Source of the DNA: Folioceros fuciformis
Taxonomy: Eukaryota
DNA length: 32,676 bases
NCBI GenBank assembly: GCA_049999805.1
Contig: JBNGIO010006316.1
Coordinates: forward strand, 560,983 to 593,658
Direction of reading: 5' to 3'
Shown here: positions 9,976 to 32,129 of the stretch, piece after piece
Layout: each line of letters begins with the position of its first letter
Numbering within the stretch: the stretch's first letter is position 1
The notes under the pieces: generated by a model
Seen by the model: the letters and a program-made list of their open reading frames with translations, nothing else
Told to the model about the DNA's origin: nothing
Database searches by the model: none
Translations under genes and position numbers: made by a program

Positions 9976-12800
9976 TCAGCCTTTGCCGTTGCCGAGACCG
10001 TGTCTCCTGCTCCTCGCTTTCATCGAAGCCCATTCGAAATGGTCACACCGGGCTGCTGAATTAGAAGCTGGGCCCTGTGCACACGGTTCACTATCGACGT
10101 TAGCACACTGCAACGGCCGATTATCAACACCGGCCGGTGCTTACAGGGAAGGATGCCATCACTGCACTCCCACAGGTCTCCGGGAGAAGAAAGAGCAACA
10201 CCCACCTGAGCTCGAGCGCAAACATAGAACCCACGCCCAATGTTGGGCCCCGCTTTCTTCACCTGCCTCACCACGCAGGGCTCCCCATGACCTCTGCAAA
10301 GAGGGACATTGGCTGCCATGAACTGTTGAATTCTCTGCCATTCGGTGGCTGCTGTTTCTTGCTTGCCTCCAGACGCAACACCACTGCCCACAACCTCTGC
10401 CCTATCTAACACGGTGCCCTGCTTCTGTTTCTCATTCCCACACAGAGACAAGGAATCCTCTGTGTTGAACGTGGTATCAGAGTCATAACTCGACATAACA
10501 GTACACCTAAACTCTGTGTCATTCCCCATATTCATGGGCCCCTGATATACGCCGGCCTTCTCCACAACTGCTTCCACAGGCCCAGCTCGAGCGAAGAAGG
10601 ACTGGAGGCTACTCTGAACAGCTCGCTGGCCATTCAAATTTCTATCACCGCTTGACTTCTTTCCTGCTTTCGCTATCTTTTGTGGATCAACGTTCACTGT
10701 TCCTTCTACTGTTGAACATTGGGACTTTCCAACATTAACGTTCCCCTGCAGTTGAAGATTGCCCTGCCGTAGGGTACAATCCGCACCCTCCATTTTCCCA
10801 TATTCTTGCACGCCCTCTACGTGCGATTCGTTCCCGCGCTCGGCATTGCAAAACTCAGGGGTTACACCATCTTGCCATGTATCATCATGCTTTCGCTTCA
10901 ATCTCTCATCCGACGGCCCTTGTGATTGCTTTTGAAATAAAGAGACTGCCGGTGCCAGCAACGACAAGAACAAGTTGAGTCAAGAGACACTATGTGCTCC
11001 CCTTTTCAAGCATCATGAAAACACGTCAATGCATTTGTACCTATGCTTTGCTGACGACCACGAAGCTCTGGCATGAAACGAGCTGCTAGAGGAGGAACAT
11101 CGTGGGCTGGCAGACAAGGCTGCTTCCTGAGCTTGACATAAACGGGTGCGTGGTCTGAGCCTTCAAGTTTAAGGCTCCTCCCTCCAGCCCATCTGACATC
11201 AGTGCAAAACCACACGTCAGCCTTAAACAGGGGCCTGCGTGAACGACCTACCTCACCGGTTCACTTGTACACAACATCGTGGGCTGCACGAATCCTGCAA
11301 ACTATATGGATAAAATGGACAAACCTAGGGATGGAATCTGGTTTGGCACGCTTGTGCGCCAGCAGAATATCCGACTCTTCTACCTCACATTCACCAAACA
11401 AGTGGGATCCTGAATAAAAAGGGCGATCTGAATGTGAACATGGTCCACCTACAAGGATGAGGTCAATGCGAGTTCCAAAATTGAACTCCTCGGCTCCAGA
11501 AGCCTGTGACCAGCATGTGTATGCTTCTCTTCTGCAAATTGAGGTGGGACAGAAGCACATAGCTCCTCGTCAGGTCTGGCATAAACAGTAACCCTCGGAA
11601 AGTGTACTTCCAGCATGATGACACACACGGAGTGATTTAAAAGATACGTTACCGGTGGGGATGCAGCTGCCGGAACACATCAACAAATGGGCCGCCACCA
11701 GATGACAGCATGCTCCTCAACCATATTCTGCAGCTGCAGGGACGGCAAAGCACAAACACATCATACGTACCTATAACCACTAGGCTGACGAAGCCAAGTT
11801 AAAATCAACGACAAACCACATACGGATTCTGTTCAAATTCTGGCCCAGGATCACAAGAATCAATGGGGAAAGGCGAAATATTGAAGTCCCCCACAGCTAT
11901 AACAGCTCTCCCTTCTCTCAAAAGCCCCCCCCACCTGCACTGCATTACAAGACACGAGAAAAACGGGTCACAAAAGAGCGGATTGAGCACAGACAAGGAA
12001 GCAACCACCACATGACGCCACCTGTAGGGCTCTGAAGAAGTCCAATTTGAACTGCAGCCGATCTGAGTCTCCAGCTTGGACCCGAGGACCATAGATGTTG
12101 AAAAGCACTGCAAGTAAATCCAGCCTGCCTGAGTAAACCCTGAAACCCTCTGCAACAAACAGCGGCTCGCCCTTACTTCTACTCACCAAAGGAACCATGG
12201 TCAGTGACCACACACCGACCCTCACTATCCAGCCGGAGCAACTCCTGCGCGCTCATATGCTCCATGTTCCAGACTTCCTGGTAGCAGCCAACACGTCCCC
12301 TCTCCTGTGTCAACTTGCCGTCCTTGGAACAATGCAAGAGGCCCGTAAACCCCTCATCCGCAGCCAGGGGCACAGCATCATTCGCATTCAGGTGGCTTGC
12401 AACGCGGCAAAAGGTTGCCACTCCTGCAGACCATTCACTGGGGTCACAAATGGGGCATCACACATGAAAGGTAGGCACAAAGACAAATCGGGGCTCACCT
12501 GAGTAGCCAATCCGGCCCTTCTTTGCTGTACGAGTACAAGAGAAGAAGGACTCGTAGCCAGCAGCTACCGCGATGTCGGAAGACAGTTCCTGTCTGGATA
12601 ATTTAGTCTCCTGCAACCAGTGGCCAGAGATGAATGAGATGGAATCCAAAACAGGTGTGTAGTCCGCATGGGATAGGGAGCTGGCATACCACCTGAATGC
12701 AAATTATGTCTGCATTCAAAGAGTCCAAAAACGTTGCTAGAGGGCGCCCATGGGAGACCCGAGCTCGCAGCCCATTCACATTGAACGTCACTATCCTCAT
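9976..12800 (-). CDS. APE2: DNA-(apurinic/apyrimidinic site) endonuclease 2 (ExoIII-type domain, PIP box, GRF zinc finger), multi-exon
   Basis: Motifs [51 protein letters not shown] and [11 protein letters not shown] box QSSLQSFF; zf-[38 protein letters not shown]...RCDHFEW. Stop TGA at 9976-9978. Confidence 0.95.
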
Positions 12801-12985: not shown

Positions 12986-14199
12986 CGCTCACACTCCGTA
13001 TGTACTATCTTCAGTACTTTCTTATGCGTCGGCTGAATGATTTGGAGAATGTTTTCACAATTTTCTCAAATTTTGTGCTAAATCTTACCATGCCTAGAGT
13101 TTTGCATCTTGGTTTCTTCACAGCCAGCCTACTTTCACAATAGCAATTTTTGCAAGTTCTAAAATTAATGCCATAAACCTCTAAGTTTAGAGGGTCATGT
13201 GACCAAGCTTGTTCAACCTCGCATGTGGAGATGCGAGGAGCTTCTGTAGAGCTTCTGCCTTCAAGTCACTATGACACCAAACATAATCGAGGGGTCGTTC
13301 ACTATTTGTGTTACCTGGATTATCTTTGCTAACTTTGACCTGCAATGTACAGACAATCATCGGCGATGTCTTGAAATACAAGAGACGTTAAATGGCTAAC
13401 AAAAGTGATAGCTCAGATGAAAACTTACCAAGTACGGTGTCCTGTTCTCATGACGAGTTTGCATTCAAAAGCATACTTGTATTTCATAATGTAAATGATG
13501 GTGAGAAATATTGTAATCCAGTGTTAGTTAGCATAACATTTTACTAATTGAATCTTATGAAAGAGAGTGGACAAGCTCTTTGTTGACATTTTCCATCCTG
13601 ATGCCAGCAGCGCCACTAGAACATAACGCAGTGAAAGAAGGATTCTAGTTAGATCACAACAGGTCTGAGAGGATAAAGTATGATCACATTAGGTCTAAGA
13701 GGGTAAAGTATGTGTTCTGCTCATCATAGCATCCCCTGCTCCGTTGCGTTCTTTCAAGTCAATTGCTCTGCTCCCTACATGTGCTCATGTGAAGCAATTC
13801 TCACTATCTGGATTGACTATTCGCCTATCTAAGTTTCTACTTAACTGTGGCTTAGGCAGGATGTCCAGCCAGCCAGCCAGCCATGTGACAGTGATTCATT
13901 AGCTAATAATATTAAAGGCATCCAGAGTGCACGGTCCGATTGTCTCATTCGTGGAGTCCGTTGGGATAGAAACCACACCAGTTGATGGCCTACCAGAGTT
14001 AGTTAGTATACAATCCTCGAAGTTCCGAAGGTATTCCGGATCAACAACAATCCTTATTGGCTGGACAAGGACGACAAAGGCCTGAGGTCTGGCGCCATGC
14101 AGAGCTCAAGGGATTAGGTGTCCTTGTCGATGGCCGTGGACGGAATTAGGTGAGCAAAGCGAACCATCCTTGAAGCTTGCTTCTTCGAAAACAGAGCAA

Positions 14200-15320
14200 T
14201 GGACACAGCATGAAATGCAAAGCTTTGCTTGGAGGCTATGCCCTTCAAGACCAGGGGGAGGACGCTGTCCGACTCTTCACCCGAATGCAAGAGACTCGTG
14301 TCAGGCCAAATGATAGAACTTTTGCCAGTGTGTTCAAGGCATGTGGCAGCATGGTTGCCATGGAAAAAGCAACCTGGAGTGATGGGCAGTCATTCAAAGA
14401 AGCCTCGCTTGAGAAGGCTAATGTGTTACAAGAGGAAGCTGAGAATGCCTTGCAGCTTTACAATGACATGCAAGACGACGGAGTGACACCAGACGAAACC
14501 ACGTTCTTGTGCCTCCTAGAAGCCTGTAGCAAGTTGGCAGCTCTCAGTATGTGCAACAACATTGTGGGATCTGGATATGTGTGGAGTGTTACTGTCGCAA
14601 GTGCCATGGTACATGCATACGGCAGATGTGGGAGCATGGTGGAGGCTCCAAAAATCTTTGACTCGTACCCGCACCATAACGTTTTCACCTGTACTGCACT
14701 GATTGCCGGATACGCCCATTGGGGAGACACTGAGTTGAGCCTACAAGCCTTCCAGGAGATGCAGCGGATGGGCATGCGGCCAAACTCCGTTACATTTGTT
14801 CCCATTCTGTCTGCGTGTAGTCACACACGCATGTTGGCCCAAGGCATGGTGTACTTTGAATACATGAGTCGGGACTACGGTCTGATACCCACGACAGAAC
14901 ACTATGTCAGCATACAGCATAGTCCACCTCTCGGGCGTGCAGGCCTATTCGACGAGGCAGATTTCAACTATGCCCACGCAGCCTGGGTTGGCAGTGTGGT
15001 TGTCATTGCTTGGGGGCTGCACGAAGTATGGCAACGTGGAGTGTGGAAGACGTGCCTTCAAACAGGCAGTCGGTGTAGACCCCAAACACTGCGCTGCCTA
15101 CACCCTCATGCAGAACATCTATGCGCATGCCCGAATGTGGGATGAAGCAGAGGAGACAGAGGCCATGAGACTGCGTGCAGGCGCTTGGAAGAAGCCTGGT
15201 CGGAGTTGGATTGAGCATCAGAGCAAGGTGTACACGTTCTTATTGAGGCTGGACAATCAGCCCAACACCCAACCTGTTTCTGCAAAGCTATCAGAATTGA
15301 ACAATCAAATTGGACGTGAG
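14200..15320 (+). pseudogene. PLS-class PPR gene fragment with E motifs and PG box; frameshifted, no DYW domain visible
   Basis: PPR motifs AMVHAYGRCGS, TALIAGYAHWG and VTFVPILSACSH. A frameshift near 14910-14960 separates ORFs 14177 and 14904. The fragment ends WKKPGRSWIEHQSKVYTF. Confidence 0.85.
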
Positions 15321-15504
15321 GATCCCAGTTTGATTCACCTTTTCGTGACTACTGTGGAATCTCTTGTGTGGATTTCACGGCAACCTTCCAAAGGTTTTGG
15401 CCCTAACAGGGTCCACGGCTTCCACAACCTGAGTGAGTCCCTTGTATGGGTCTTGCTTGCAGTCGGGATGAGTGTGATCTTGAATTTCTGTTCGTACTCA
15501 CAGC

Positions 15505-16500
15505 TCAATTGTGGTCTCCACACGAACATACGCCACCACCCTTGAAGTGACGAACTCTGTGGGCGTCTCTAATTATGATCTCCCTATTCTCAATCTTGGC
15601 GATGATCTTCGTGCCTCTGTGGCAATGGTCACACATCCGCAGATTTTTCGTTACCAGCAAGGTGGAGCCTTCGGGCGTGTTGAGGAGACCATAAGCTAAT
15701 GCAAGCTTCTCGGCGTGTCCACCAAGAGCATCATCCTTGTTCGGATCTGGGTCCAACATCATGCCTGCATCATGCTCCATTCATAAGATTTAAGCTCCTT
15801 AGCTTTGCGCGAGTGTCCTCTGTCATGTCCCACGCAATGAATTCATGCATCTTGTGGTCCACTTGGATCGAGGCCTTTGCAGGCTTCTTACGAGCTCCTG
15901 CATTCTGTCGCATGCATGTTCTCTACTTTATCTGCGTCCTGCCACTGTCCGTCCTTGGCATATATATTGGACATGAGCACATAGACACCAGCCTGATTGG
16001 GTTCCAGTTTGACCACGCGATCAAAACATATCCTTCCTAGTTCTGCGTGACCATGCTGTCTACAGGCAGTCACCAGAGACATCCAACCCACAGTAGGATT
16101 TTCATAAGGCATTGTTCGAAGAAGTTCTGCCTCGTCCAGTTGTCCTGACCTTCCAAGAATATCAACCATGCTATTGTAGTGCTCAACTCTTGGTAAAATG
16201 CCATACTCCTCCTCCATCGTTCGAAAATAGTGACTGCCCATGCTCACCAGGCCCACATGGCTGCATGCAGCAAGGAGGCAAGAAGACGTAGCTCGCGGCA
16301 TCTGGGTCCACCCCCTGTTGCAGCATGTCCTCGAAACACTGCACATCCATTTCCCAGTCATTGGGCTGGCCATATGCATCAATGAGGGCAGTCCATGTCA
16401 CAGTGTCCCTGGTGGACAGTCTGCTAAACAGTGTCTGACAGTCATCCATGCTCCCACATTTTGCATACATATCCACAAGTGCATTTCCCATCACAGGCAA
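15505..16500 (-). pseudogene. PLS-class PPR-DYW:KP editing-factor pseudogene (several frameshifts, 5' truncated)
   Basis: Fragments NALVDMYAKCGS, LAACSHVGLV, HYNSMVDILGRSG, then KKPAKASIQVDHKMHEF (15860-15889 and onward), GHAEKLALAYG, KNLRMCDHCH and DAHRVRHFKGGGVCSCGD. These lie in at least three different frames. Confidence 0.9.
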
Positions 16501-18776: not shown

Positions 18777-19440
18777 ATGGCTGAGGCACACGTCGTCTTT
18801 GACGCGATGCCTGAAAGAGATGTTATCACGTGGAATGCGCTGATTGCAGGATACAGCCGGCCGGGGGACAGTGCAGAGGTCTTCGATTTGGTCGACAGAA
18901 TGAGAGTCGATGGCATACAACCAGATGGCATCACCTTTCTTAGTCTACTCACGGTATGCAGTCATACGGGTCTGGTGCGCAAGAGTCGCGAATATTTTGA
19001 CGGCATGAGCAGTGACTATGGCGTCGACCCAACTGTGGAGCACTACACATGCATGGTGGATGTCCTGGGCCGTGCAGGCCTACTGGACGAGGCCCTAGCT
19101 TTGGTAAAGGCAATGCCTGTACTCCCCGATGCTGCAGTTTGGCACTCTCCACTAGGTGCTTGTCAAAAGTGGCGGGACCTGGAGGTGGGACGTCATGCCT
19201 TGGACCAAGTACTGAAGCTGGACATGAAGGATGATGCAGCGTATGTGCTTATGTCGAACATATTCACCGGTACCGAGATGTGGGGGCAGGCGCAGGATAT
19301 GCAGGCAAGGAGAATAGGTGTCAGGGCCTGGAAGCAACCGGCCAGAGCTGGTGGACGGACCTGGATGGGCTGGTGCATAGTTTTCTGGTTGGGTTTGAAA
19401 GCATCCCCAAATTCGAGCCTGGCCGGTAGAGTGGCTCTCC
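18777..19440 (+). pseudogene. 5'-truncated PLS-class PPR fragment with E motifs and WW-type box
   Basis: Motifs RDVITWNALIAGY, ITFLSLLTVCSHTG and EHYTCMVDVLGRAG. After a 1-nt deletion at ~19341 the shifted frame reads WKQP(G)QSWWTDLDGLVHSFLVG. Confidence 0.85.
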
Positions 19441-20626
19441 AATAGCGTAGCCATGTCTGGTTAACAACGTTCGGGTACTTTGCTGTATTTCCTCAAATGG
19501 CACTCTCTATCCCCTGCATAGTTCCATGGGAGTCCTCCCATGAAGAGCTGCAAGCACATGATCATGAGAGGTCGCGTTTGAGGGCCAGGAGGTGGGATTT
19601 TCCGGCATCCTTAGTTTTCATTGTATGAAGCAGGCGCAGATAAAGCTGAAAGCGGAGAAGTCGGAGATCATGTTCCATCGAAGGCCAGGTTTCAGCCTGC
19701 AAGATGTATGGCGCCATTCCTGACCCAACCTTAAACCCTTGCAGGGTTGCCTCATGTGTGTATTGCGCTTCAGCACCCTCCAGGTATTCTATGATGGATC
19801 TTCATTGTCATCCTTGGAGGCAACCTTTTCTGTCAAATCTGATCGGTTGCTTGCTCAATCGCAGGAATGCCAATTTGGCCTTTTCGCCAGACCCCCGCGA
19901 TCCTGCTAACCAGCAGCAACGCAGCATGAAGTGCGCAATTTGACGCGTGTGTGCCTGTGCGGAATGTAGGGAGGCGTGACAAGTTGGGGACAGTAGTAGG
20001 AAGCATGCTTTCTCTGCTTTTGTACTGTTTCTGAACTTGAACTGAAGTGCGGCCTGGAATGTGTACCGGGCCAACAAGTGGATGTGCAGCAACAATGCGA
20101 CTGGTAAGGACATAAGTAGTGAGCGGAGCCTGGTTTCCTGGATGCGGGCAGGAAGTCGACTTTGTAATCAGCGTGAGCGGGAGATGGTCCAGCGGCTGTT
20201 CTTGTTTCCATGTCTGCAGAAAGAGGGTCACCATGCATGCGGGTGATATGCTTTGCATTCCCTTCCGTGAAACAACAGTGTATGGCCACCCGTTGTAAAT
20301 TACCCAAAAGAAACTAGCATGCGTCGCCCACAAACTCGGTTGAATTGAACTCAACGAGATTGGATGAAAACGTCGCCCCGCCCGTTTACTCAACCAGTGC
20401 GTTCCTACAGATGCATAGGTTGCCTATCCCACCTACAAGGCTGACATCAGATTCCCAGAATTAACTGGTGAACCAAGACTGCATGGGTTTTAGCTCCGAG
20501 AATCAATTTGAGTCACGTAGTTACTCCAGGTGTAGATTCTTCCATTTGATGCTCTGCGTTATCTGCCCGTCGTATAGCGTAGCCACGGATCAATGTCTCT
20601 CGCAATCGTAAGCGTAACGCGGGCCC

Positions 20627-21617
20627 ATGGCATTGCGGAAATCAGCAGGCACTTTTGGAAGGGCTCCTTCTCAATTGACTTCAAGGAGGCGAGCTTTGCC
20701 AAGCGAGCCAGCCGAAAGATGGGGGCCTTCAGTTGGACAGGCAGCTCATCCAACAGGATGGGTGGATAAAGGCGGAGCTGCCAGCCAGGTTCGTCAGCAG
20801 GAGCTATTGTGGGGACAGTTCTTTCGGGACCCAACACTGTGGTGGGATAGCAGGCATGCCAAGAAAAGTAATCGTTTGCCTGACTTCCAGCACAGAGAAT
20901 CCCATGAGGGGATCTGGCTGCACCACCTCTACAAGCCAGCCTGAGTGAAGTCGAAGCTTGCTGCTTGGGATGTGGATATGGGTCGTGAGGTCTCTAAGCC
21001 CAAACCTAGCTTGCCCGACGGTCGGGACAATCTCAGGCCTGCAGGATTGTGATGGCTGAAACTGTGAGCAAGCTATGTCATGAGGGCCTGCTCACTGAGG
21101 CTGCTGAGGCTCTGGAAGTTCTGGCGCAGACACACTCCTGTGTACCCAAGTCTCAGTTTTATACTGTACTTAAGCAATGTGTGTTGAAGAAGAATCTTGT
21201 TCTGGGTCGTCGGTCGGGTGCATGGTTTGACGATGGACAAGGGGTATCAGTCGGACACGTTCCTGAGCAATCACATTCTGCGAATGTATGCTTAGTTTGG
21301 CAGGTTGCAAGACGCGATAGATGTGTTCACCATGGTTGCTGAACCAGATGCCTTCATCTGGTCTTCCATAATCTCTGCACATGTTAGACATGGACAAGAC
21401 AAAAGCAAAGCAGGCCGTGCAGCTATATCCACGGATGCGCAGGTCCAGTGTGAAGCCAGATGGTCATCTGTTCGTGGCATCACTTCAGGCCTGTGCAAGG
21501 GGAAGGGACCTGAGAGCTGGGCAGCAGGTGCATGCTGATATCTTGGCCAGTGGGCTTGAGCCTGATTTGTTTGTTTGTAATTGCTTGGTGGACATGTATG
21601 CAAAGTGTGGCAACTTG
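20627..21617 (+). pseudogene. N-terminal part of a PLS-PPR gene carrying an OSB-type PDF motif; disrupted by stops and frameshifts
   Basis: An Arg/Ser-rich N-terminus precedes ELLWGQFFRDPTLWWDSRHAKKSNRLPDFQHRESHEGIWL (20801-20920), then PA*VKSKL with TGA at 20942. PPR motifs follow: FYTVLKQC, DAFIWSSIISAH, FVASLQAC and CNCLVDMYAKCGNL. Confidence 0.8.
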
Positions 21618-21668
21618 GTACAGTATAATGGCCGACTTGAAGGAACCCAACCCAACCCAACCCAACGC

Positions 21669-22165
21669 AATGCTTGTCGAGGCGCTGGGCGTCTTGTCAA
21701 AAGCATGAAAGCGCAGGAGTCAAGCACTGCCAACCCTACAGCAAAGCCAAGGTGCCAGCAGTGCTTGACTTTCACCTTGGCTTAACTTTACAGCAAAGCC
21801 AAGGTGTCAGAGTTTGAGGGAAGCCAAGCACAGGGGTCGGGCCCCGCCGACCTTGCCACTACCAGCAAAGCCGAGGGGTCAGACGTTCAGGAAAGCCAAG
21901 TTGTCAGAAACAGAGTGCGACTTTTGTCTTCTGTGAAAGACTGCCTCACAGTTTTCTCCACCAGTCCTGGAGATGCATCTTTGAGAGATGTCGAGGAAGG
22001 CACAAACCTCATCATAGCTTTGATGGACGCCATCATGGAGGGCTCTGAAACAGAAGATGTCTTGAGCATTCTGACAAGCTTCATTGGCATGGCGACGGAC
22101 GTGGAGGTCCAAGACAAAACCAAAGACGGGGACTATGAGAAGAAATATCAGTGTCCTGAGTTGCG
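21669..22165 (+). pseudogene. Caspase-domain fragment (catalytic-Cys motif, linker and p10 subunit), paralog of 26865-27623
   Basis: NACRGAGRLVKSMKAQ, then after a frame break PADLATTSKAEGS...KDCLTVFSTSPGDASLRDVEEGTNLI...TEDVLSILT...QCP. DNA similarity to 27249-27585 is obvious. Confidence 0.88.
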
Positions 22166-22395
22166 CGCAGCACACTTACCAAAACACTATACTGCTCTCG
22201 ACCACCCCCGACTCCTGTCATGCCTGGCTATAGTGAGTAGCATGTGGCCAGGGCCTGCAATGCCGTCAATCGAGAGTCAGGTATGCTCTTGAGCTACATG
22301 TTGTTGGTCTATTAAATACTGCCTCTGATAAGTCTTGTCACTTCTCCTTTGCCTGGCATTCTTTCCTGTTTGGCCAGAGAGACCTCTCACAGCAT

Positions 22396-22405
22396 NNNNN
22401 NNNNN
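22396..22405. other. Assembly gap (10 N) with a ~47-bp duplicated flank
   Basis: ttgcctggcattctttcctgtttggccagagagacctctcacagcat occurs immediately on both sides of the Ns. Confidence 0.95.
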
Positions 22406-22521
22406 TTGCCTGGCATTCTTTCCTGTTTGGCCAGAGAGACCTCTCACAGCATCCTGATGGGGATGAACAGAAGCCCCATGGACGCTATGCGTAGGGAAGG
22501 AAGAACTTGCGCGCATGTGCA

Positions 22522-22690
22522 CTAGGAACCTTGCTGAGCTGAGCTCAGGTGCTGGGTCCTACCACAAGCGTGCTGTACCTGCCTTCCATGTAAAGGAAGG
22601 CATCTTTGGTGCATGTCGTGTTGTAACAAGCAGGGGTAGGGGCGAGAGAATTGGAAGGAGGGTTGGAAGCAGCAGCTGAGAAAAGTTTAG
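22522..22690 (+). repeat. Dispersed repeat copy upstream of the ROCO-caspase gene
   Basis: ctaggaaccttgctgagctgagctcaggtgctgggtcctac...ccttccatgtaaaggaaggcatc...ggaagcagcagct matches the 16648-16725 and 29570-29740 regions. Confidence 0.85.
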
Positions 22691-23354: not shown

Positions 23355-23417
23355 CGGATGATACATACAATCCATTCATCATATTTGCTTGCATTGGGAG
23401 GCGCAGCTTAGCACAGC

Positions 23418-26400
23418 ATGGCGGAGCAGGACGACTATCACTGGCTCTCTTTGCCGGGAATGCTGCCAGAGCTGCTGGCAGATCTGGAAGGGCACGCCTT
23501 GACCGAACTCCCCAACTTGGGCGGAACGGAGTATGGCGATTTCTTCAGAAGGAGAGCTTCAACGAGGATGGATGGCAGGTACTGGCGAGTGCGTAAGCAG
23601 GTATTGACAGCTGTTGGCCAGTGCCGCAGTCTCCGCCAGCTGAAGATATCTGAACGGTGGGAAATCGGCATCGGTCGGGAGGACGAATGCGCGGTTCTGT
23701 TGGAGGGCCTGGCATCCAACCCTTCCCTGGAATCTCTTGATCTGTGTGACTGCTCAGGTTTTGGAAGGCTGGCGGGTTGCAAGGCCCTAGGCCAGCTTAT
23801 TGCTTCTAGTCGCAGCTTGCGACAGCTGAAGGCATGGGACATTGGACTTGGTACCGCTGGACTTGGTGCCCTGGTCGATGGCTTCAACCAGGATTCTGTC
23901 CTGGAGCATTTGAGCCTAAACTTTAACAGAGTGGGAGATGGTGAAGGGGCACAGCACCTGGCTCGCATGCTGGCCACCGCTCCCCGTCTCAATGTCCTGG
24001 ACCTGTATGGGATCGGCATGGATGAGGAGGGAGTCCAGTGTATTGCGAACGCTCTTCCGCTCCATGCCTCGCTCCGGACACTTCAGTTGAGTGGTGATAA
24101 ATACCCGAGTGACAGTAGTACAATTAGGGGTTCCGTACAGGGCAGCCTGGGGCTAATGAGCACCTTGTGCAAACTGGCTTTCACCCGTGCTGATGCTGAG
24201 GCTGATGCTCCCATATCTGGGGTCACCAAGCTGACGTTGGATGTCGGGAAGGGAGACGAGCCAGGCCTGGCCGACGCCCTTGCCGGAATGTTGCGCACCA
24301 ACGATTGTATCACGGAGCTTCGGATCAGTTGTTGTGTTGTCAAGTTCGGCCTGGACGCCTGGCGCCACAACTCCACCCTCTCCACGCTTTTCTTGTCCGA
24401 CTATGAGCGTGACGGGTCGTTAAGTGAATTTTCGATGTCGTTTCTGGAGTGCAAATCATTACGCATCTTGGCTTTGTACAGGATAACGGGGCCCTCTTTC
24501 TTCAAAGCGGTGATGCAGTCTTTGGCGGAAAATACATCTTTGAATGAGTTCCGCATTGTGGATTGCAAGGGACTTGACGATGAGCTATTCAGAGAATTGA
24601 TGCAGTCGCTCCAAGTCAACACCACTTTGCAGGAGATCAGCGTACGGGCTACGAATTGGGAGACGGAGGGAAAGCAGGCCATCATCAACGCGACGTTGGC
24701 ACGCAATTTTAGTCACAGGGCCTACTGGCCTTTGCTTTTGGAGGGGCATGAGGCTGTGAAGCCCAGGGTCGGCCGCCTTTTCCTGTGCGGTGCACCTTAC
24801 GCAGGGAAGACCACTCTCCGAAACACCATGATCACCGCATGGCGCGCATGGCAACCACACACATCACATTGTACAGGAGCCGCTTCAGCCAAGCGAGTCC
24901 AATCGTGGGAACAACTGTTTCTAGGTTGGAATGGTTTCTGGTTCGGTAATGTTCCACTCATTGGAGCTGCATCATACAACCAGGTGGGAACTGTTCCCAG
25001 AACGGAAGGCATAGAAATCGATGTGCTGCGCAACGACGACGAGATGGAAGTTACCATTTGGGATCTGGCTGGACAAGCTCACTACCGTGCTCTGCAAGAC
25101 TACTTGTTCCCGAGCTTCAACCAGACATGTGTCTTCCTGTTCACATTCAACCCACTTGATGCCCACAAGCCTGGCGAACCCCTTCCGTCCGATGAAATGC
25201 TGCTGGACAAGTTCAGGAACGGCTTCAAGTTTTGGCTTAGATTTATCCACTCCAATTCTCGCAACGTGGGTTCCTGTTTGCCTCGGGTATTTGTGGTTGT
25301 CACTCATAAGGATCGGATGGAGGATTTGGACGCTAAATATCTGGTTGGTCTGCTGCAACCAGTCGTGGAAGAGTTGGCCAAGACTTTCGAGGAGGTACTT
25401 CTTATCAGGACAACGCCTTTCTTCATGGATGCTCGATCTGAACAGACTGTGCAGCCTTTGCTGGAGCAGCTATTCCAATCATTTCAAGAGCTATTTGCGC
25501 TTCCTTTGTTTTCGGTCCCGAAGGCGTGCAATCGATTGAGTGCTGCTTTGACTCACTGGGTATCTCAAAATCCAGGTCAGCCTCTGGTGACCAAGGAGAG
25601 GTGCAAAAACCTGTTTAACGCACATGATGAGCAACGCCTTCAAGCAATTCTTGCCTATCTGCACAACGCAGGCCGGGTCATCTGGTTCCAGGATGCAGAT
25701 GCAGATGCTGTGGTGGTAAATCCACACTGGATCAGTCATTCGTTCCTGGGCCATCTCACTGAGTGCCTAGCCGGACAGTCTTCCCTGGGGAGATCGCGAG
25801 ACCGTGGATTTGTTGCTGAAGACCTCCTCAACGACACCTTAGCCCGGATCCTCAAGGACACGCACGCGGCCGACAGGATTCGTGTCGAAGATTTGGTATC
25901 ATTGATGATGAGGCTAAACTTGTGCTATCGAGATGACGCGAATCCAAGGCCTGGATTCTTCGTTCCGTTCACCTTGGATGACGCCGAAGGTAAAGCTCTT
26001 CGTGGGGAACGACAGCTGCACTGGGACGGGGTAACGGCGGGCCAGTACAATTACGTGGGGAGGCGGCTACAATGCCGAGATGAAACCAAGACGTTTCTCG
26101 GTCCAGGATTCTTTCCAAGATTCCAAGTACGTTACCTTGTGAACTGTCTCTGTAGATCTGTCGCTAGTGATTTATCCTCTCTTGGGTTTCCTGACTATAT
26201 CGCCAACGGTTGTGCATTGCAGGTCAAATTACGACAGATCTTGTTCGATGGGCTCTCCGGTATGGAGTCTCATCAATATAGCATTGCCCGTAACTTGATA
26301 ACATTTAAGTATGGTGGTATGGATGTGTTCTTGGAGAGTAGCGGGGATATTGGGGAGGAGACCGGGGATATCGGGGATCGTGTTGACATTTTGATGAGGT

Positions 26401-27626
26401 CACTCAGGAGGAAGGACGAAACGATCCAGTTTCTCCAGAGGCATATTGTTGCAGAGCTGAGAGCATTTTGTGCTTCTCCTGAAGGTAGTCCTGGAGTTGA
26501 GCTTGTAGAAGGGATCATCAGGACCGAGTGTGTAGAGAAGCTCACACCTTGTATTCACCGACACAATCAATCAGTTCTCACACACAGGTTGATGGAGTCG
26601 TTTCTCAAAAGCCTGCAGACCTCTCAGATTTCCTCCGGTTCGGATCTGCCTCCTCACTTCCACGTCTGGCCAGCTGCAGAAAGGCCTGAAGCCAGTCTAC
26701 GCTGTGCACAAGAGGATGCCAGAAACTTCTTAAGTAGCGGTGAGGTTGAAAGTGTTTTGAAGACGTGGCGGACAGGGCTACCGCGCAATGCAACGAGTGG
26801 CCCTTCAGCTGGCTCAAGTCACTCACAGGGATCGCCTCACATCGAGTCAGTGCAGGAATTATCATATCCAAACCAAAGGGTGAAAGTAGGTGAGCGGAGA
26901 GGTCTGGCAATGATAGTCAGCATGGAAGACCACAGACATGGAGGACAGGTAGACAGAGGGCGACTTGAAGCTCTCTTCGAGATGTTGAATTTTGAAACAG
27001 ATATCGTGGTGAGCGGTCCTAAGGAAGGGAAATCAAGGTTGAAAGCTATTCTCAGGGTCCCTCACCTAGCAGAAGACGATTGCTTTCTGTTTTGCGTGAA
27101 CGCCCATGGTGGGACTGATGAAGACGGAAGGCAGTATGTTTTCTCAGGTGAAGCAGACAAGGCGGAGAAGCTTTATGTTGAAGAAGATATTTTGAAGCCC
27201 ATCGCTGAATGCCAGTATTTGGCACACAAGCCTAAGGTGGTCATCATAAATGCTTGTCGAGGAACTGGCCGTCTTGTCAAAAACATGAAAGCACAGGGGT
27301 CGAGCCCCGCCGACCTTGCCACTACCAGCAAAGCCGAGGGGTCAGAGGTTGAGGGAAGGCAGGGTCCCAACAAGAGAACTCGACCCTTGTATCAGGCGAA
27401 AGATATTCTCACCGTCTTCTCTACCAGTCCTGGAGATTTATCCTTCAGAAATGTGGAGGAAGGCACAAACTTCATCGTATCTTTCATGAGAGCCATCATT
27501 GACCACTCTCGTACCGAAGATGTGGTGAGCATTCTAACAAGAGTGACTCGCGAGGTCACCGAAATGCAGAACGTGCAGTGTCCCCAGTTCGTCAGCTCTC
27601 TCACTGGAAAGCTATACTGGTCTTAA
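23418..27626 (+). CDS. TORNADO1-like ROCO protein (RI-type LRRs, Roc GTPase, COR) with C-terminal caspase (peptidase C14A-like) domain; probable 96-nt in-frame intron 26127-26222
   Basis: LRRs: SLESLDLCDC, VLEHLSLNFNRVGD, RLNVLDLYGIGMD. Roc: P-loop GAPYAGKTT (24789), RTEGIEI, TIWDLAGQ, VVTHKD. COR/TRN1-like: VVVNPHW, YVGRRLQCRD..TFLGPGFFPRFQV. Caspase from ~26865: RHGGQVD, DDCFLFCVNAHG, KPKVVIINACRG, DILTVFSTSPGDLSFRN, QCPQFVSSLTGKLYW. The 1402-codon ORF is uninterrupted. Confidence 0.9.
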   Translation: MAEQDDYHWLSLPGMLPELLADLEGHALTELPNLGGTEYGDFFRRRASTRMDGRYWRVRKQVLTAVGQCRSLRQLKISERWEIGIGREDECAVLLEGLASNPSLESLDLCDCSGFGRLAGCKALGQLIASSRSLRQLKAWDIGLGTAGLGALVDGFNQDSVLEHLSLNFNRVGDGEGAQHLARMLATAPRLNVLDLYGIGMDEEGVQCIANALPLHASLRTLQLSGDKYPSDSSTIRGSVQGSLGLMSTLCKLAFTRADAEADAPISGVTKLTLDVGKGDEPGLADALAGMLRTNDCITELRISCCVVKFGLDAWRHNSTLSTLFLSDYERDGSLSEFSMSFLECKSLRILALYRITGPSFFKAVMQSLAENTSLNEFRIVDCKGLDDELFRELMQSLQVNTTLQEISVRATNWETEGKQAIINATLARNFSHRAYWPLLLEGHEAVKPRVGRLFLCGAPYAGKTTLRNTMITAWRAWQPHTSHCTGAASAKRVQSWEQLFLGWNGFWFGNVPLIGAASYNQVGTVPRTEGIEIDVLRNDDEMEVTIWDLAGQAHYRALQDYLFPSFNQTCVFLFTFNPLDAHKPGEPLPSDEMLLDKFRNGFKFWLRFIHSNSRNVGSCLPRVFVVVTHKDRMEDLDAKYLVGLLQPVVEELAKTFEEVLLIRTTPFFMDARSEQTVQPLLEQLFQSFQELFALPLFSVPKACNRLSAALTHWVSQNPGQPLVTKERCKNLFNAHDEQRLQAILAYLHNAGRVIWFQDADADAVVVNPHWISHSFLGHLTECLAGQSSLGRSRDRGFVAEDLLNDTLARILKDTHAADRIRVEDLVSLMMRLNLCYRDDANPRPGFFVPFTLDDAEGKALRGERQLHWDGVTAGQYNYVGRRLQCRDETKTFLGPGFFPRFQVRYLVNCLCRSVASDLSSLGFPDYIANGCALQVKLRQILFDGLSGMESHQYSIARNLITFKYGGMDVFLESSGDIGEETGDIGDRVDILMRSLRRKDETIQFLQRHIVAELRAFCASPEGSPGVELVEGIIRTECVEKLTPCIHRHNQSVLTHRLMESFLKSLQTSQISSGSDLPPHFHVWPAAERPEASLRCAQEDARNFLSSGEVESVLKTWRTGLPRNATSGPSAGSSHSQGSPHIESVQELSYPNQRVKVGERRGLAMIVSMEDHRHGGQVDRGRLEALFEMLNFETDIVVSGPKEGKSRLKAILRVPHLAEDDCFLFCVNAHGGTDEDGRQYVFSGEADKAEKLYVEEDILKPIAECQYLAHKPKVVIINACRGTGRLVKNMKAQGSSPADLATTSKAEGSEVEGRQGPNKRTRPLYQAKDILTVFSTSPGDLSFRNVEEGTNFIVSFMRAIIDHSRTEDVVSILTRVTREVTEMQNVQCPQFVSSLTGKLYWS

Positions 27627-29750: not shown

Positions 29751-29844
29751 CTCAAAAGCTCCTCAAGCTCGCAACCTTGGACCAGGTCACCAGATCCTCA
29801 AAAGCACGGAAGCGGACGAGACTGGTGGTGAACATTTCGTATTA

Positions 29845-31270
29845 TTGATGGAGAGACTAAACTTGTGCTATGAAGATATGCGAACCCTAGCCCTGGATTC
29901 TTCGTTCCCTTCACCTTGGATGACACAGAAGGTAAAGATCTTCAAGGGAACGACAGTTGGTCTGGAAGGGTGGTACAGCACTCAAGTACACGTACTTAGG
30001 GAGGCGGCTACAATGCCGAGAGACTGGAAGGGTGGTACAGTGCACAAGTACAACTACTTAGAGAGGTGGCTACAATGCCGAGATAAACGAACACGTTTGT
30101 CGTCCAGGCTTCTTTCCAAGATTCTAGGTACGTTACCTTGTGAGGTCTGTGACACTTCGTTAGTGATATATGCTCTCTTTGGCTTTCATGACATGGCCAA
30201 TGGTTGTGCGTTGCAGGTCAAGTTACGACAGATCTTGTTTAATGGACCCTAGGGTATGAAGTGTCATCAGAATAGCATTGCCCGCAACTTGATCAAATTT
30301 AACTACTATGTTATGGAATTATTTTTGGAGAGCAGTGGGGATATTGGGGAGGAGACCGGGGACATTGGTGATCGTGTTGACATTTTGATGAGGTCACTCA
30401 AGAGCAAAGACAAAACGATCGAATTTCTCCAGCAGAGTTTGGTTGCGGAACTGAGAGCATTTTGTGCTTCTCCTGAAGGTAGTCCTGGAGTTGAACTAGT
30501 AGAAGGGATCATCAGGACTGAGTGTGTGGAGAACCTCAGGGAAGGAACCATCGTATCCAAAGTCAGTCACAGGGACCGCCTCTACTGAAGTCAGGGAAGG
30601 AACCGTCATATCCAAACGAAAGGGTGAAAGCAGGTCACGGGCGAGGTCTTGCAATGATAGTCAGTATAGAAAAAGGCAGAGATGGAGGACAGCTAGACAG
30701 AGGGCGACTCGACGTTCTTCTCCGTGGTCTGCCCTTGAAGTTTGAGATGAGTCTGTGTGGTGGACGATCTTAAGGAAGCGAAATCAACGTTGGAGCGCGT
30801 TGTCAGGCATCCTGACTTCGATAAGGACGATTGTTTTCTGTTTTACGTAAATGCCCATGGTGAGACTGAAGAAGATGGTAGAGAGTATGTTTGCTTAGGT
30901 GAAGCAGACAAGGCGGAGAAGCTTTATGTCGAGGAAGTTATTTTAAAGCCCATCGCTGAATGCGGGAATTTGGCAAACAAGCCGAAGGTGGTTGTCATAA
31001 ATGTTTGTCGAGGCACCGCCAGCCTTGCCACTAGCAGCAAAGCCATGGGCTCAGACGTTGAGGAAAGCCAGGGTCCCAGCAAGAGAATTCGACTCCTGTA
31101 TTATGCGAGCAACTTTCTCACCGTGTACTCCACCAGTCCTGGAGACTAATCTTTGAGAGATGTCAAGAAAGGCCCAAACTTCATCATAGCTTTCATGAAC
31201 GTCATCATAGCTTTTGTTTTTGTATGTTTGCTTTTGTTTGTAGGTGAAGCAGACAACGCCGAGAAGCTGC
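29845..31270 (+). pseudogene. Degenerate paralog of the ROCO-caspase gene (C-terminal COR plus caspase), with frameshifts, stops and internal duplications
   Basis: Retains MERLNLCY, WLQCRD, ESSGDIGEETGDIGDRVDILMRSL, ELRAFCASPEGSPGVELVEGIIRTECVE, GRGLAMIVS, DDCFLFYVNAHG, KPKVVVINVCRG and STSPGD. In-frame TAG at 30250 and TAA at 31147. Confidence 0.92.
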
Positions 31271-32129
31271 GGCGGAGTGCGGGAAGCCGCTGTGGGTGGG
31301 ATCATTCTGTACCTCGTTGCCCGTGGCTGAGGCCACCACGTGATCTCATCGTCACTTGCTTAACAGAGAGAGATATGAGTGATGGTCATGGAGAGCACCC
31401 CTCATGAAGTTAGGATGAGGTCTTCAAGAGTTCTGACCGTTAGGAACCTTTTTTCTGATCGAACTGGGCCCACTGCCGGAAGAGTGTCCGATCGATCATG
31501 GTGCATGCTAGTCCTCGGGACTGGAAATTTAATGCCAGAACCACAGCAGAAGGGAATAGTAGGATGAGGTTGATTGAGCGAAGCCGTGATGCAGACCAGA
31601 TTTAGTCCCCGCGGCCCGGTGACGGAAATGCGTCAGGTGCATTTCAAGCCTGGCGAGCTTGCCAGTGCCACACAAGTAAGGCAGTGGAAAGCGTGCGCAT
31701 CTGCCTGGTTTGAAGAACTGTCGCAGCCCTTGTGTTGCTTGTTCATGGTTTGATCTTTCGGCTTGCTTTCAGGTGGACCAAGGGCATGTCAGGCAGTGTG
31801 GAACAATTTCATTGCGGACAGCACTACTGGCAAGGTATGATGCTCTGGCGGCTGAGGATTAGCTGTTGAATTCGAGAGCACCCAGGCACGGACTGACTCG
31901 CACTTAGTGCACAGCAAAACGAGGAGAGCTGTTTGTTCTGAATCCTGGTCGAATCAGGTGCAGTGCAGATAAGCTGCCCTCAGCCGTTCATTCAGCCAGG
32001 GACTCTACCCTCAATCGGAGGAAAGAGTCCAGGGACAGCGGAAAGCTGAAGGAGCTCGTGCGAGTGTTGTAGATGTAACGATGTCCATGGATGCAGTGAC
32101 CTTTCCAACGATGGACTGGCTGGTGACAG

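Follow-up and report, generated by a model that had tools for sequence, protein, structure and literature searches.

We analyzed a window of 32,676 nucleotides (nt) from Folioceros fuciformis (assembly GCA_049999805.1, contig JBNGIO010006316.1, positions 560,983 to 593,658 of the forward strand), and all positions below count from the first letter of this stretch. At 23418..27626 (+), the window contains a single open reading frame (ORF) of 1402 codons plus stop, which begins with ATG and which we refer to as the ROCO-caspase gene. Without a probable intron, the product would comprise about 1370 amino acids. An in-frame stop at 23409 lies 9 nt upstream of the ATG. Under equal codon use, the chance of so long a stretch without a stop is about 6e-30, and the other frames and the opposite strand across the gene contain short ORFs only.

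The encoded chain consists, in this order, of leucine-rich repeats (LRRs) of the ribonuclease inhibitor (RI) type, a Roc G-domain, a COR domain, a Ser/Gly-rich linker, and a caspase domain. Judged by this anatomy, we are highly confident that an intact plant nuclear gene here encodes LRRs, a Roc-COR GTPase switch, and a caspase of animal type in one protein. The same order had been proposed in an earlier note on this DNA, and it is borne out by Pfam, sequence motifs, and fold models. The GAPYAGKTT, RTEG, DLAGQ, and THKD motifs and the caspase dyad that the note had located are likewise all present at the positions it gave. No Pfam match to an NB-ARC or NACHT domain was found in the protein at E <= 1.

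The protease domain is closest to animal caspases

The caspase domain (26898..27617, +; residues 1161-1400) holds large- and small-subunit parts on one chain and matched Pfam Peptidase_C14 with an E value of 5.9e-26, the entire profile being covered (1-233 of 233). Alignment and motifs place the catalytic dyad at His1230 in NAHGG (codon 27105..27107, +) and Cys1280 in NACRG (codon 27255..27257, +). These two motifs align with the SHG-like and QACxG-like catalytic motifs of caspase-8 and Dronc. In the same alignments, R1173 and R1344 each stand opposite an arginine and N1278 stands opposite the glutamine that precedes the catalytic cysteine. We take these to be the three S1-pocket sites that confer Asp specificity in caspases, two of which would thus be kept.

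When solved chains were compared with the single caspase sequence, Dronc (1.7e-12) and caspase-8 (4.4e-11) came first, followed by caspase-9, caspase-3, and CED-3. A profile built from 15 related domains gave E values of 3e-45 to 1e-42 with caspase-8, -6, -3, and -7, the alignments extending along the full catalytic domain, and the best 60 rows of this search were all caspases. The AlphaFold2 model of the domain (mean predicted local distance difference test score [pLDDT] of 81.2, predicted template modeling score [pTM] of 0.80) shows six main strands, and its inter-subunit loop (model residues 154-191) is disordered; with Foldseek, the matches listed at ranks 1-50 were all caspases.

A structure search with this model among 48,161 representatives retrieved caspase-9 (Z 27.9, root mean square deviation [rmsd] 3.0 over 217 residues), caspase-8 (4jj7_A; Z 27.6, rmsd 1.9 over 203 residues), caspase-3 (4pry_A; Z 27.0), caspase-4 (Z 24.4), CED-3 (Z 24.0), and Dronc (Z 23.5), ahead of the MALT1 paracaspase (Z 21.9), Yca1 (Z 15.7), and Trypanosoma MCA2 (Z 12.9). 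Sequence identity in this search was 22-29% to caspases (24-29% for caspase-9, -8, and -3) and 9-12% to metacaspases. A metacaspase as the nearest kin was ruled out, as Arabidopsis metacaspases 4 and 9 scored Z 18.9 and 18.1 at 9-11% identity, compared with 27.9-23.5 for the caspases. By both sequence and fold, the protease is therefore nearer to animal caspases than to paracaspases or metacaspases, and the caspase claimed in the earlier note is confirmed by the full-profile match, the dyad motifs, and the fold. In the ESM Atlas, the nearest neighbors of residues 1131-1402 were animal caspase clusters, with PF00656 in 30/30 hits, which we treat as a lead only. A homodimer prediction for the caspase domain scored 0.72 and one control scored 0.54; we used this result neither way.

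The linker that connects the COR domain to the caspase (26673..26897, +; approximately residues 1086-1160) is Ser/Gly-rich in its center, as had been noted before, at approximately residues 1121-1148, and the start of the caspase model has low pLDDT.

The N-terminal part combines RI-type LRRs with a Roc-COR module

The LRR region occupies 23595..24737 (+), or about residues 60-440, with approximate limits. Repeats of 28-29 residues are discernible from about residue 70 to 415; some six of them are clean and the others are degenerate. The single sequence matched the LRRs of ribonuclease inhibitor and NLRP proteins with an E value of 3.3e-6, and a family profile of the region matched those of ribonuclease inhibitor and NLRP/NLRC4 at 1.3e-24, so that the assignment to the RI type stands.

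Pfam, alignment, motifs, and AlphaFold2/Foldseek were used to place the Roc G-domain at 24762..25490 (+; about residues 449-691, limits approximate). Its P-loop (G1) is GAPYAGKTT at residues 458-466 (24789..24815, +), including Lys464 and Thr465; G2 is represented by the threonine of RTEG (528-531), G3 by DLAGQ (549-553), and G4 by THKD (629-632). In an alignment of the ROCO-caspase protein with 11 relatives, G463, K464, and T465 were invariant in 12/12 sequences, and the G1, G3, and G4 residues as a whole (these three together with D549, G552, H630, and D632) were invariant or nearly so. Pfam Roc was found in 12/12 of these sequences and COR-A in 9/12.

The COR domain, comprising COR-A and COR-B, follows at 25491..26672 (+; about residues 692-1085, limits approximate). 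We modeled residues 435-1131 with AlphaFold2 using 23 relatives as the alignment (pLDDT 77.6, pTM 0.82) and searched the model with Foldseek. LRRK1 came first (8e05_A, E 3.6e-18, about 700 columns aligned), and LRRK1, LRRK2, and the Chlorobium tepidum RocCOR led the list at E values of 3.6e-18 to 1.6e-15. The C. tepidum structure 3dpu_A reached a TM score of 0.69 on the target, the LRR-Roc-COR structure 6hlu was also matched, and plain Rab and Arf GTPases ranked far behind the ROCO structures. The complete Roc G-domain proposed earlier is thus supported by the G1-G4 motifs and by the fold match to LRRK1, LRRK2, and the C. tepidum protein; the TORNADO1 (TRN1)-like COR region is supported by a COR-A match, the Roc-COR fold, and bryophyte TORNADO1-like homologs.

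Between G1 and switch I, the Roc domain carries a Trp/Phe/Gly-rich insert (24858-25016; residues 482-527) with pLDDT <50, at a position where the inserts of relatives are shorter and unrelated. As no good splice signals were found within 24858-25016, the insert is probably a real variable loop.

A probable in-frame intron interrupts the COR region

The 12-sequence alignment revealed a 32-residue insertion (904-935), located between a conserved FFPRFQ and the next basic stretch, that is absent from 11/11 relatives. It corresponds to a 96-nt segment at 26127..26222 (+) that starts with GTACGT and ends with TTGCAG. In a decayed paralog downstream, the matching segment is 89 nt long, which is not a multiple of three, and contains stops, while its flanks are still alignable. 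The AlphaFold2 model is unconfident across residues 912-952, which overlap the segment. We screened 25 other in-frame GT..AG candidates; none coincides with an insertion relative to homologs, and those listed would remove conserved cores.

Two contigs of a sequencing run, here called X1, join 26126 (or 26123) to 30217 (or 30214) with GT..AG ends. These junctions correspond to the exon end of the ROCO-caspase gene and the exon start of the paralog, 30217 being its first exon base. The shorter side of these intron-less junction contigs measures 23 letters, and the kind of run (RNA or not) was guessed; the contigs therefore hint at splicing in the family and are no proof that the ROCO-caspase gene is expressed.

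Taken together, 26127..26222 is very probably a spliced intron, and the mature protein is probably 1370 amino acids long. The earlier description of one open frame thus applies to the DNA, whereas the mature protein probably lacks 32 of the residues that this frame encodes. With the intron removed, Cys1280 becomes Cys1248 in the spliced product.

A TORNADO1-like backbone with an exchanged C terminus

A word-index search with the ROCO-caspase protein returned 12 proteins, the best with an E value of 1.6e-79. The best 10 were ROCO proteins with 26-30% identity, the named ones coming from Riccia, Marchantia, Sphagnum, and Calypogeia, and none of the 12 (0/12) had a precomputed Peptidase_C14 match. 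An exhaustive search with residues 445-1402 gave 1036 matches at E <= 1e-3, 198 at <= 1e-10, and 78 at <= 1e-30, the best one at 3.2e-118. Identity to the nearest ROCO relatives was 30-42%. All top matches that were looked up and had names came from Marchantia or Riccia, indicating that liverworts hold a large and varied ROCO family. A 2014 review confines plant ROCO genes to flowering plants (PMC4104024); since liverworts and a moss have many ROCO proteins, this statement no longer holds. In the ESM Atlas, residues 1-1130 were closest to entries named "Tornado 1" (0.97) and "protein TORNADO 1" (0.96), again a lead only.

Sequence comparison shows homology of the LRR-Roc-COR part with TORNADO1-like ROCO proteins of bryophytes. 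The kinship proposed in the earlier note therefore holds, according to the searches and the 12-sequence alignment, for the first 1100 residues or so and with TORNADO1-like plant ROCO proteins. Homology with the relatives extends to about residue 1110. Beyond this point, a C-terminal domain of about 300 residues is common to most relatives but absent from the ROCO-caspase protein, which in turn is the only one of the 12 aligned members (1/12) with Peptidase_C14. Two relatives, P0025 from Marchantia paleacea and P0029 from Riccia sorocarpa, instead carry a GHCLGG-type alpha/beta-hydrolase in their C-terminal 350 residues or so, with weak matches to DUF676 / Abhydrolase_6. The earlier suggestion that the TRN1 C-terminal region had been swapped for a caspase is thus matched by the alignment, in which the domain of the relatives is replaced. 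Because relatives have either the usual domain or a hydrolase after COR, the C-terminal position behaves as an exchangeable effector slot, and the gene probably originated by domain exchange on a TORNADO1-like backbone.

The type of hydrolase seen in P0025 and P0029 also precedes the caspase in a Marchantia polymorpha protein (P0131). In bryophytes, the hydrolase and the caspase have the look of effector modules that can stand in for each other.

Related caspases and recurrence of the fusion

Among 160 collected proteins, 18 match the caspase part, and two of these (P0088 and P0135) match the end of COR too. The hornwort Nothoceros aenigmaticus is the source of P0135, P0170, P0140, and P0145, all Trinity transcripts. 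P0131 and its cluster belong to Marchantia polymorpha and are named "Caspase family p20 domain-containing protein" in UniRef (PTQ31690.1), and the animal caspases P0141, P0143, P0146, and P0158 come from a mite, a mussel, an ostracod, and a katydid. The contig P0088 is collinear with residues 980-1402 and P0170 with residues 989-1311 (starts approximate), which in both cases includes the end of COR-B, the linker, and the caspase. The COR-to-caspase junction is thus conserved at about 30% identity, and a single assembled transcript spans it in Nothoceros. Since the Nothoceros aenigmaticus transcript and the P0088 contig share this junction, the ROCO-caspase fusion is not unique to the Folioceros fuciformis genome.

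In the alignment of 15 caspase domains, the catalytic histidine is present in 14/15 and the cysteine in 13/15. P0088 is devoid of the Cys motif, P0157 has a tyrosine in place of the histidine, and P0135 ends at the Cys motif. The family thus includes protease-dead members (P0088 and P0157), which may have a regulatory part like that of c-FLIP toward caspase-8.

Other searches were less productive. Word-index searches with the caspase part alone, against long and short proteins, gave no match, nor did a metagenome scan with the single protein. The metagenome scan with a four-sequence alignment found nine distant loci (L001-L009) at 27-43% identity. With the same alignment, a scan of 185,579 prokaryote genomes yielded 152 pattern matches and no relative, although this is a weak test that detects close matches to two peptide patterns only.

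Decayed copies and neighboring genes

Two further copies of the ROCO-caspase sequence lie in the window, both decayed. The truncated paralog downstream (29788..31209, +) extends from COR-B to the caspase with 54-61% protein identity, contains stops at 30125, 30250, and 31147 as well as frame changes, and has no LRR, Roc, or COR-A and none of the last 40 or so caspase residues. The other copy is a caspase piece from NACRG onward at 21648..22196 (+), with a stop at 21783, directly behind a fragment of a pentatricopeptide repeat (PPR) gene. The local picture is that of a ROCO-caspase family that is duplicating and decaying. Both decayed copies adjoin PPR gene sequence, and X1 contigs join 21610 to about 32500, that is, PPR to PPR, which points to a segmental duplication in which PPR and caspase sequence were copied jointly.

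Other genes of the window include PsaD (713-1429, -; E 6.4e-68), an ORF with a GRF zinc finger (10023-10973, -), and at least two PLS-type PPR genes with E motifs (14177-15545, +, and 18777-19445, +); additional PPR repeats occupy approximately 20900-21640 and the last part of the window, starting near 31900. The PsaD and PLS-type PPR neighbors, together with the spliceosomal-type intron, identify the window as plant nuclear DNA and not a contaminant. Such a density of PPR-E genes is consistent with extensive organellar RNA editing in the plant. A gap of 10 N at 22396-22405 (region 22277-22522) has an identical 15-residue translation on both sides in a minus-strand ORF, and one X1 contig skips 195 nt there; the gap is probably an assembly artifact at a short tandem duplication.

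Run X1 contained 32% of the sampled words, with coverage of every one of the 30 bins, also in intergenic DNA. Of its 1702 contigs, 916 were only 90-95% alike, and 246 were alike at 99% or more. Because these contigs are mostly diverged and intergenic bins are covered, X1 cannot show transcription of the ROCO-caspase gene. Runs X2 and X3, from the same study, contact only PPR repeats.

Proposed mechanism and alternative explanations

Initiator caspases are activated by induced proximity. COR domains mediate dimerization through their C-terminal half, and ROCO proteins have been proposed to be GTPases activated by nucleotide-dependent dimerization (PMC4104024). We propose that the LRRs would bind a ligand or a guarded partner and that the Roc-COR module would serve as a nucleotide-dependent switch and dimerization device, as in other ROCO proteins. 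A ligand- or nucleotide-dependent change in LRR-Roc-COR could then bring two caspase domains together and activate both. Cleavage after Asp (or Glu) might follow, either of the protease itself, in the inter-subunit loop (approximately residues 1283-1330), whose Asp residues are candidate self-cleavage sites, or of cellular targets, the most likely outcome being defense signaling or cell death. An immune or cell-death role is suggested by analogy with the bacterial LRR-Roc-COR-effector proteins, by the exchangeable slot, and by the birth-and-death pattern of the locus. We consider this mechanism and role quite possible, though short of probable. As the best explanation of the whole, we favor, by a modest degree of belief, an intact ROCO-caspase gene whose product is a dimerization-activated protease in defense or cell death.

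Several observations weigh against this explanation. An Asn replaces the Gln of QACxG, which leaves Asp specificity uncertain. The Pfam scores fall below the cut-offs, for Roc (20.9 bits versus 27) as well as for COR-A at residues 726-850 (34.9 versus 35.3). The loss of catalytic residues in P0088 and P0157 implies that catalysis is not always required in the family. Moreover, the sole characterized plant ROCO protein, TORNADO1, acts in leaf patterning and not in immunity (PMC4104024). With a TORNADO1-like backbone, the gene might accordingly encode a developmental or housekeeping signaling protein whose caspase is a processing enzyme for limited proteolysis, with no role in pathogen sensing or death; animal caspases also have nondeath roles (PMC11615176). 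We consider this unlikely, since the decayed tandem copies, the many diverged X1 look-alike contigs, and the exchangeable C-terminal enzymes are more in keeping with a fast-turning receptor family than with a single-copy gene conserved for development, and identity even to the nearest relatives is only 30-42%. Decay is itself a reason for caution. Two of the three copies, all within 11 kb, are broken, so the intact one could be on its way out, and no transcript of the gene was found among the runs recorded as RNA. That it is an unexpressed or dying member of a birth-and-death cluster, with an open frame but an inert protein, nevertheless seems rather improbable to us: a 4.2-kb frame without a stop, all G-motifs, the catalytic dyad, and the GT-AG intron ends have been kept beside copies that decayed quickly, and X1 contigs, from a run of guessed kind, carry the intron-less junction of the family.

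The origin of the gene could also lie elsewhere. Bacterial LRR-AP-GTPase (Roc)-COR proteins with a C-terminal caspase have been catalogued (PMC8195603), and further down the Atlas list come bacterial Roc clusters (0.94 and 0.92), so that the whole LRR-Roc-COR-caspase or its caspase part might have been transferred horizontally from a bacterium, for example, a cyanobacterial associate. This is very improbable given that the nearest relatives of the backbone are bryophyte ROCO proteins, down to E 3.2e-118, that the nearest named nonbryophyte relatives of the caspase are animal caspases, and that the single bacterial structure listed, GSU0716, reached Z 18.5 compared with 27.9 for caspase-9. The gene also contains a spliceosomal-type intron, and the prokaryote pattern scan, weak as a test, found no relative. 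To an assembly chimera or contaminant, in which an animal caspase would have been wrongly joined to a plant ROCO gene, we give almost no credence. The caspase part is animal-like and the window does contain one gap, but this gap lies 1 kb upstream of the gene, whereas the junction is a continuous frame that recurs in the downstream paralog and, with about 30% identity, in two independent sequences; in addition, the caspase fragments abut PPR genes.

Implications and comparison with known systems

Unrelated proteases have long been held responsible for "caspase-like" activities in dying plant cells. Reviews and research papers alike state that plants lack caspases (for instance, PMC12521494), and a caspase-fold domain in a plant nuclear gene challenges this. 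It is conceivable, if somewhat doubtful, that seed-free plants have true caspases, against the published view that metacaspases are the only such enzymes of plants, and that in at least one lineage a caspase is hard-wired to a ROCO switch as a single-chain apoptosome-like receptor with LRRs as its sensor and Asp-directed proteolysis as its means of killing or signaling. If so, either early streptophytes possessed caspase-type enzymes that seed plants have since lost, or the receptor-executioner logic was invented independently of NLRs. The relatives in a hornwort transcriptome and in Marchantia make the question testable in tractable bryophyte models. With the protease and Roc-COR on the same chain, the protein would offer a simple system in which to ask whether ROCO GTPases are dimerization devices that fire an attached effector, a question not yet answered for LRRK2. 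It also adds a non-NLR type to the candidate intracellular immune receptors in nonflowering plants.

The LRR-Roc-COR-caspase architecture as such is not new to biology, because it has been catalogued in bacteria. As described by Kaur, Iyer, Burroughs, and Aravind (2021, PMC8195603), prokaryotic AP-GTPase (Roc)-COR proteins are predicted counter-invader systems whose N-terminal LRRs evolve fast and whose C-terminal domain can be any of at least 24 alternatives, including caspase. They share with the ROCO-caspase protein the LRRs, the Roc/AP-GTPase and COR, and a variable C-terminal effector. They differ in being bacterial and, by the same account, known from computational analysis alone, whereas the gene described here is plant nuclear, contains an intron, and combines a TORNADO1-like backbone with a caspase nearest to those of animals. 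In plants, the earlier note had considered the architecture undescribed, and our literature search, too, found neither a bryophyte caspase-type protease nor a plant ROCO-caspase, although the supplementary tables of PMC8195603 and PMC11218826 might list such proteins.

TORNADO1 itself combines RI-like LRRs with Roc-COR and functions in leaf patterning (PMC4104024). TORNADO1-like proteins of land plants resemble the ROCO-caspase protein in having RI-type LRRs followed by Roc and COR, with homology to bryophyte members over residues 60-1110 or so, but end in their own C-terminal domain of about 300 residues where the latter has a caspase, and whole-length identity is 24-30%. The Marchantia polymorpha protein P0131 has the same type of caspase (34% identity over the domain), likewise located C-terminally in a multidomain protein, but with a SERAC1-like alpha/beta-hydrolase at the N terminus instead of LRR-Roc-COR.

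With the animal initiator caspases caspase-8, caspase-9, Dronc, and CED-3, the protein shares the fold, the His/Cys dyad with SHG-like and QACxG-like motifs, the single-chain arrangement of large and small subunits, and a long inter-subunit loop. Unlike these enzymes, it has a covalently attached LRR-Roc-COR instead of a CARD or DED prodomain and an Asn in place of the motif Gln, at 22-29% identity. Finally, the apoptosome and NLRs, which are based on STAND NTPases, follow a similar logic of sensor repeats, a nucleotide switch, and a proximity-activated effector, and the LRRs described here resemble those of NLRP and NLRC proteins. In the ROCO-caspase protein, however, the switch is a Ras-like GTPase with COR rather than an NB-ARC or NACHT ATPase, and the protease resides on the same chain instead of being recruited.

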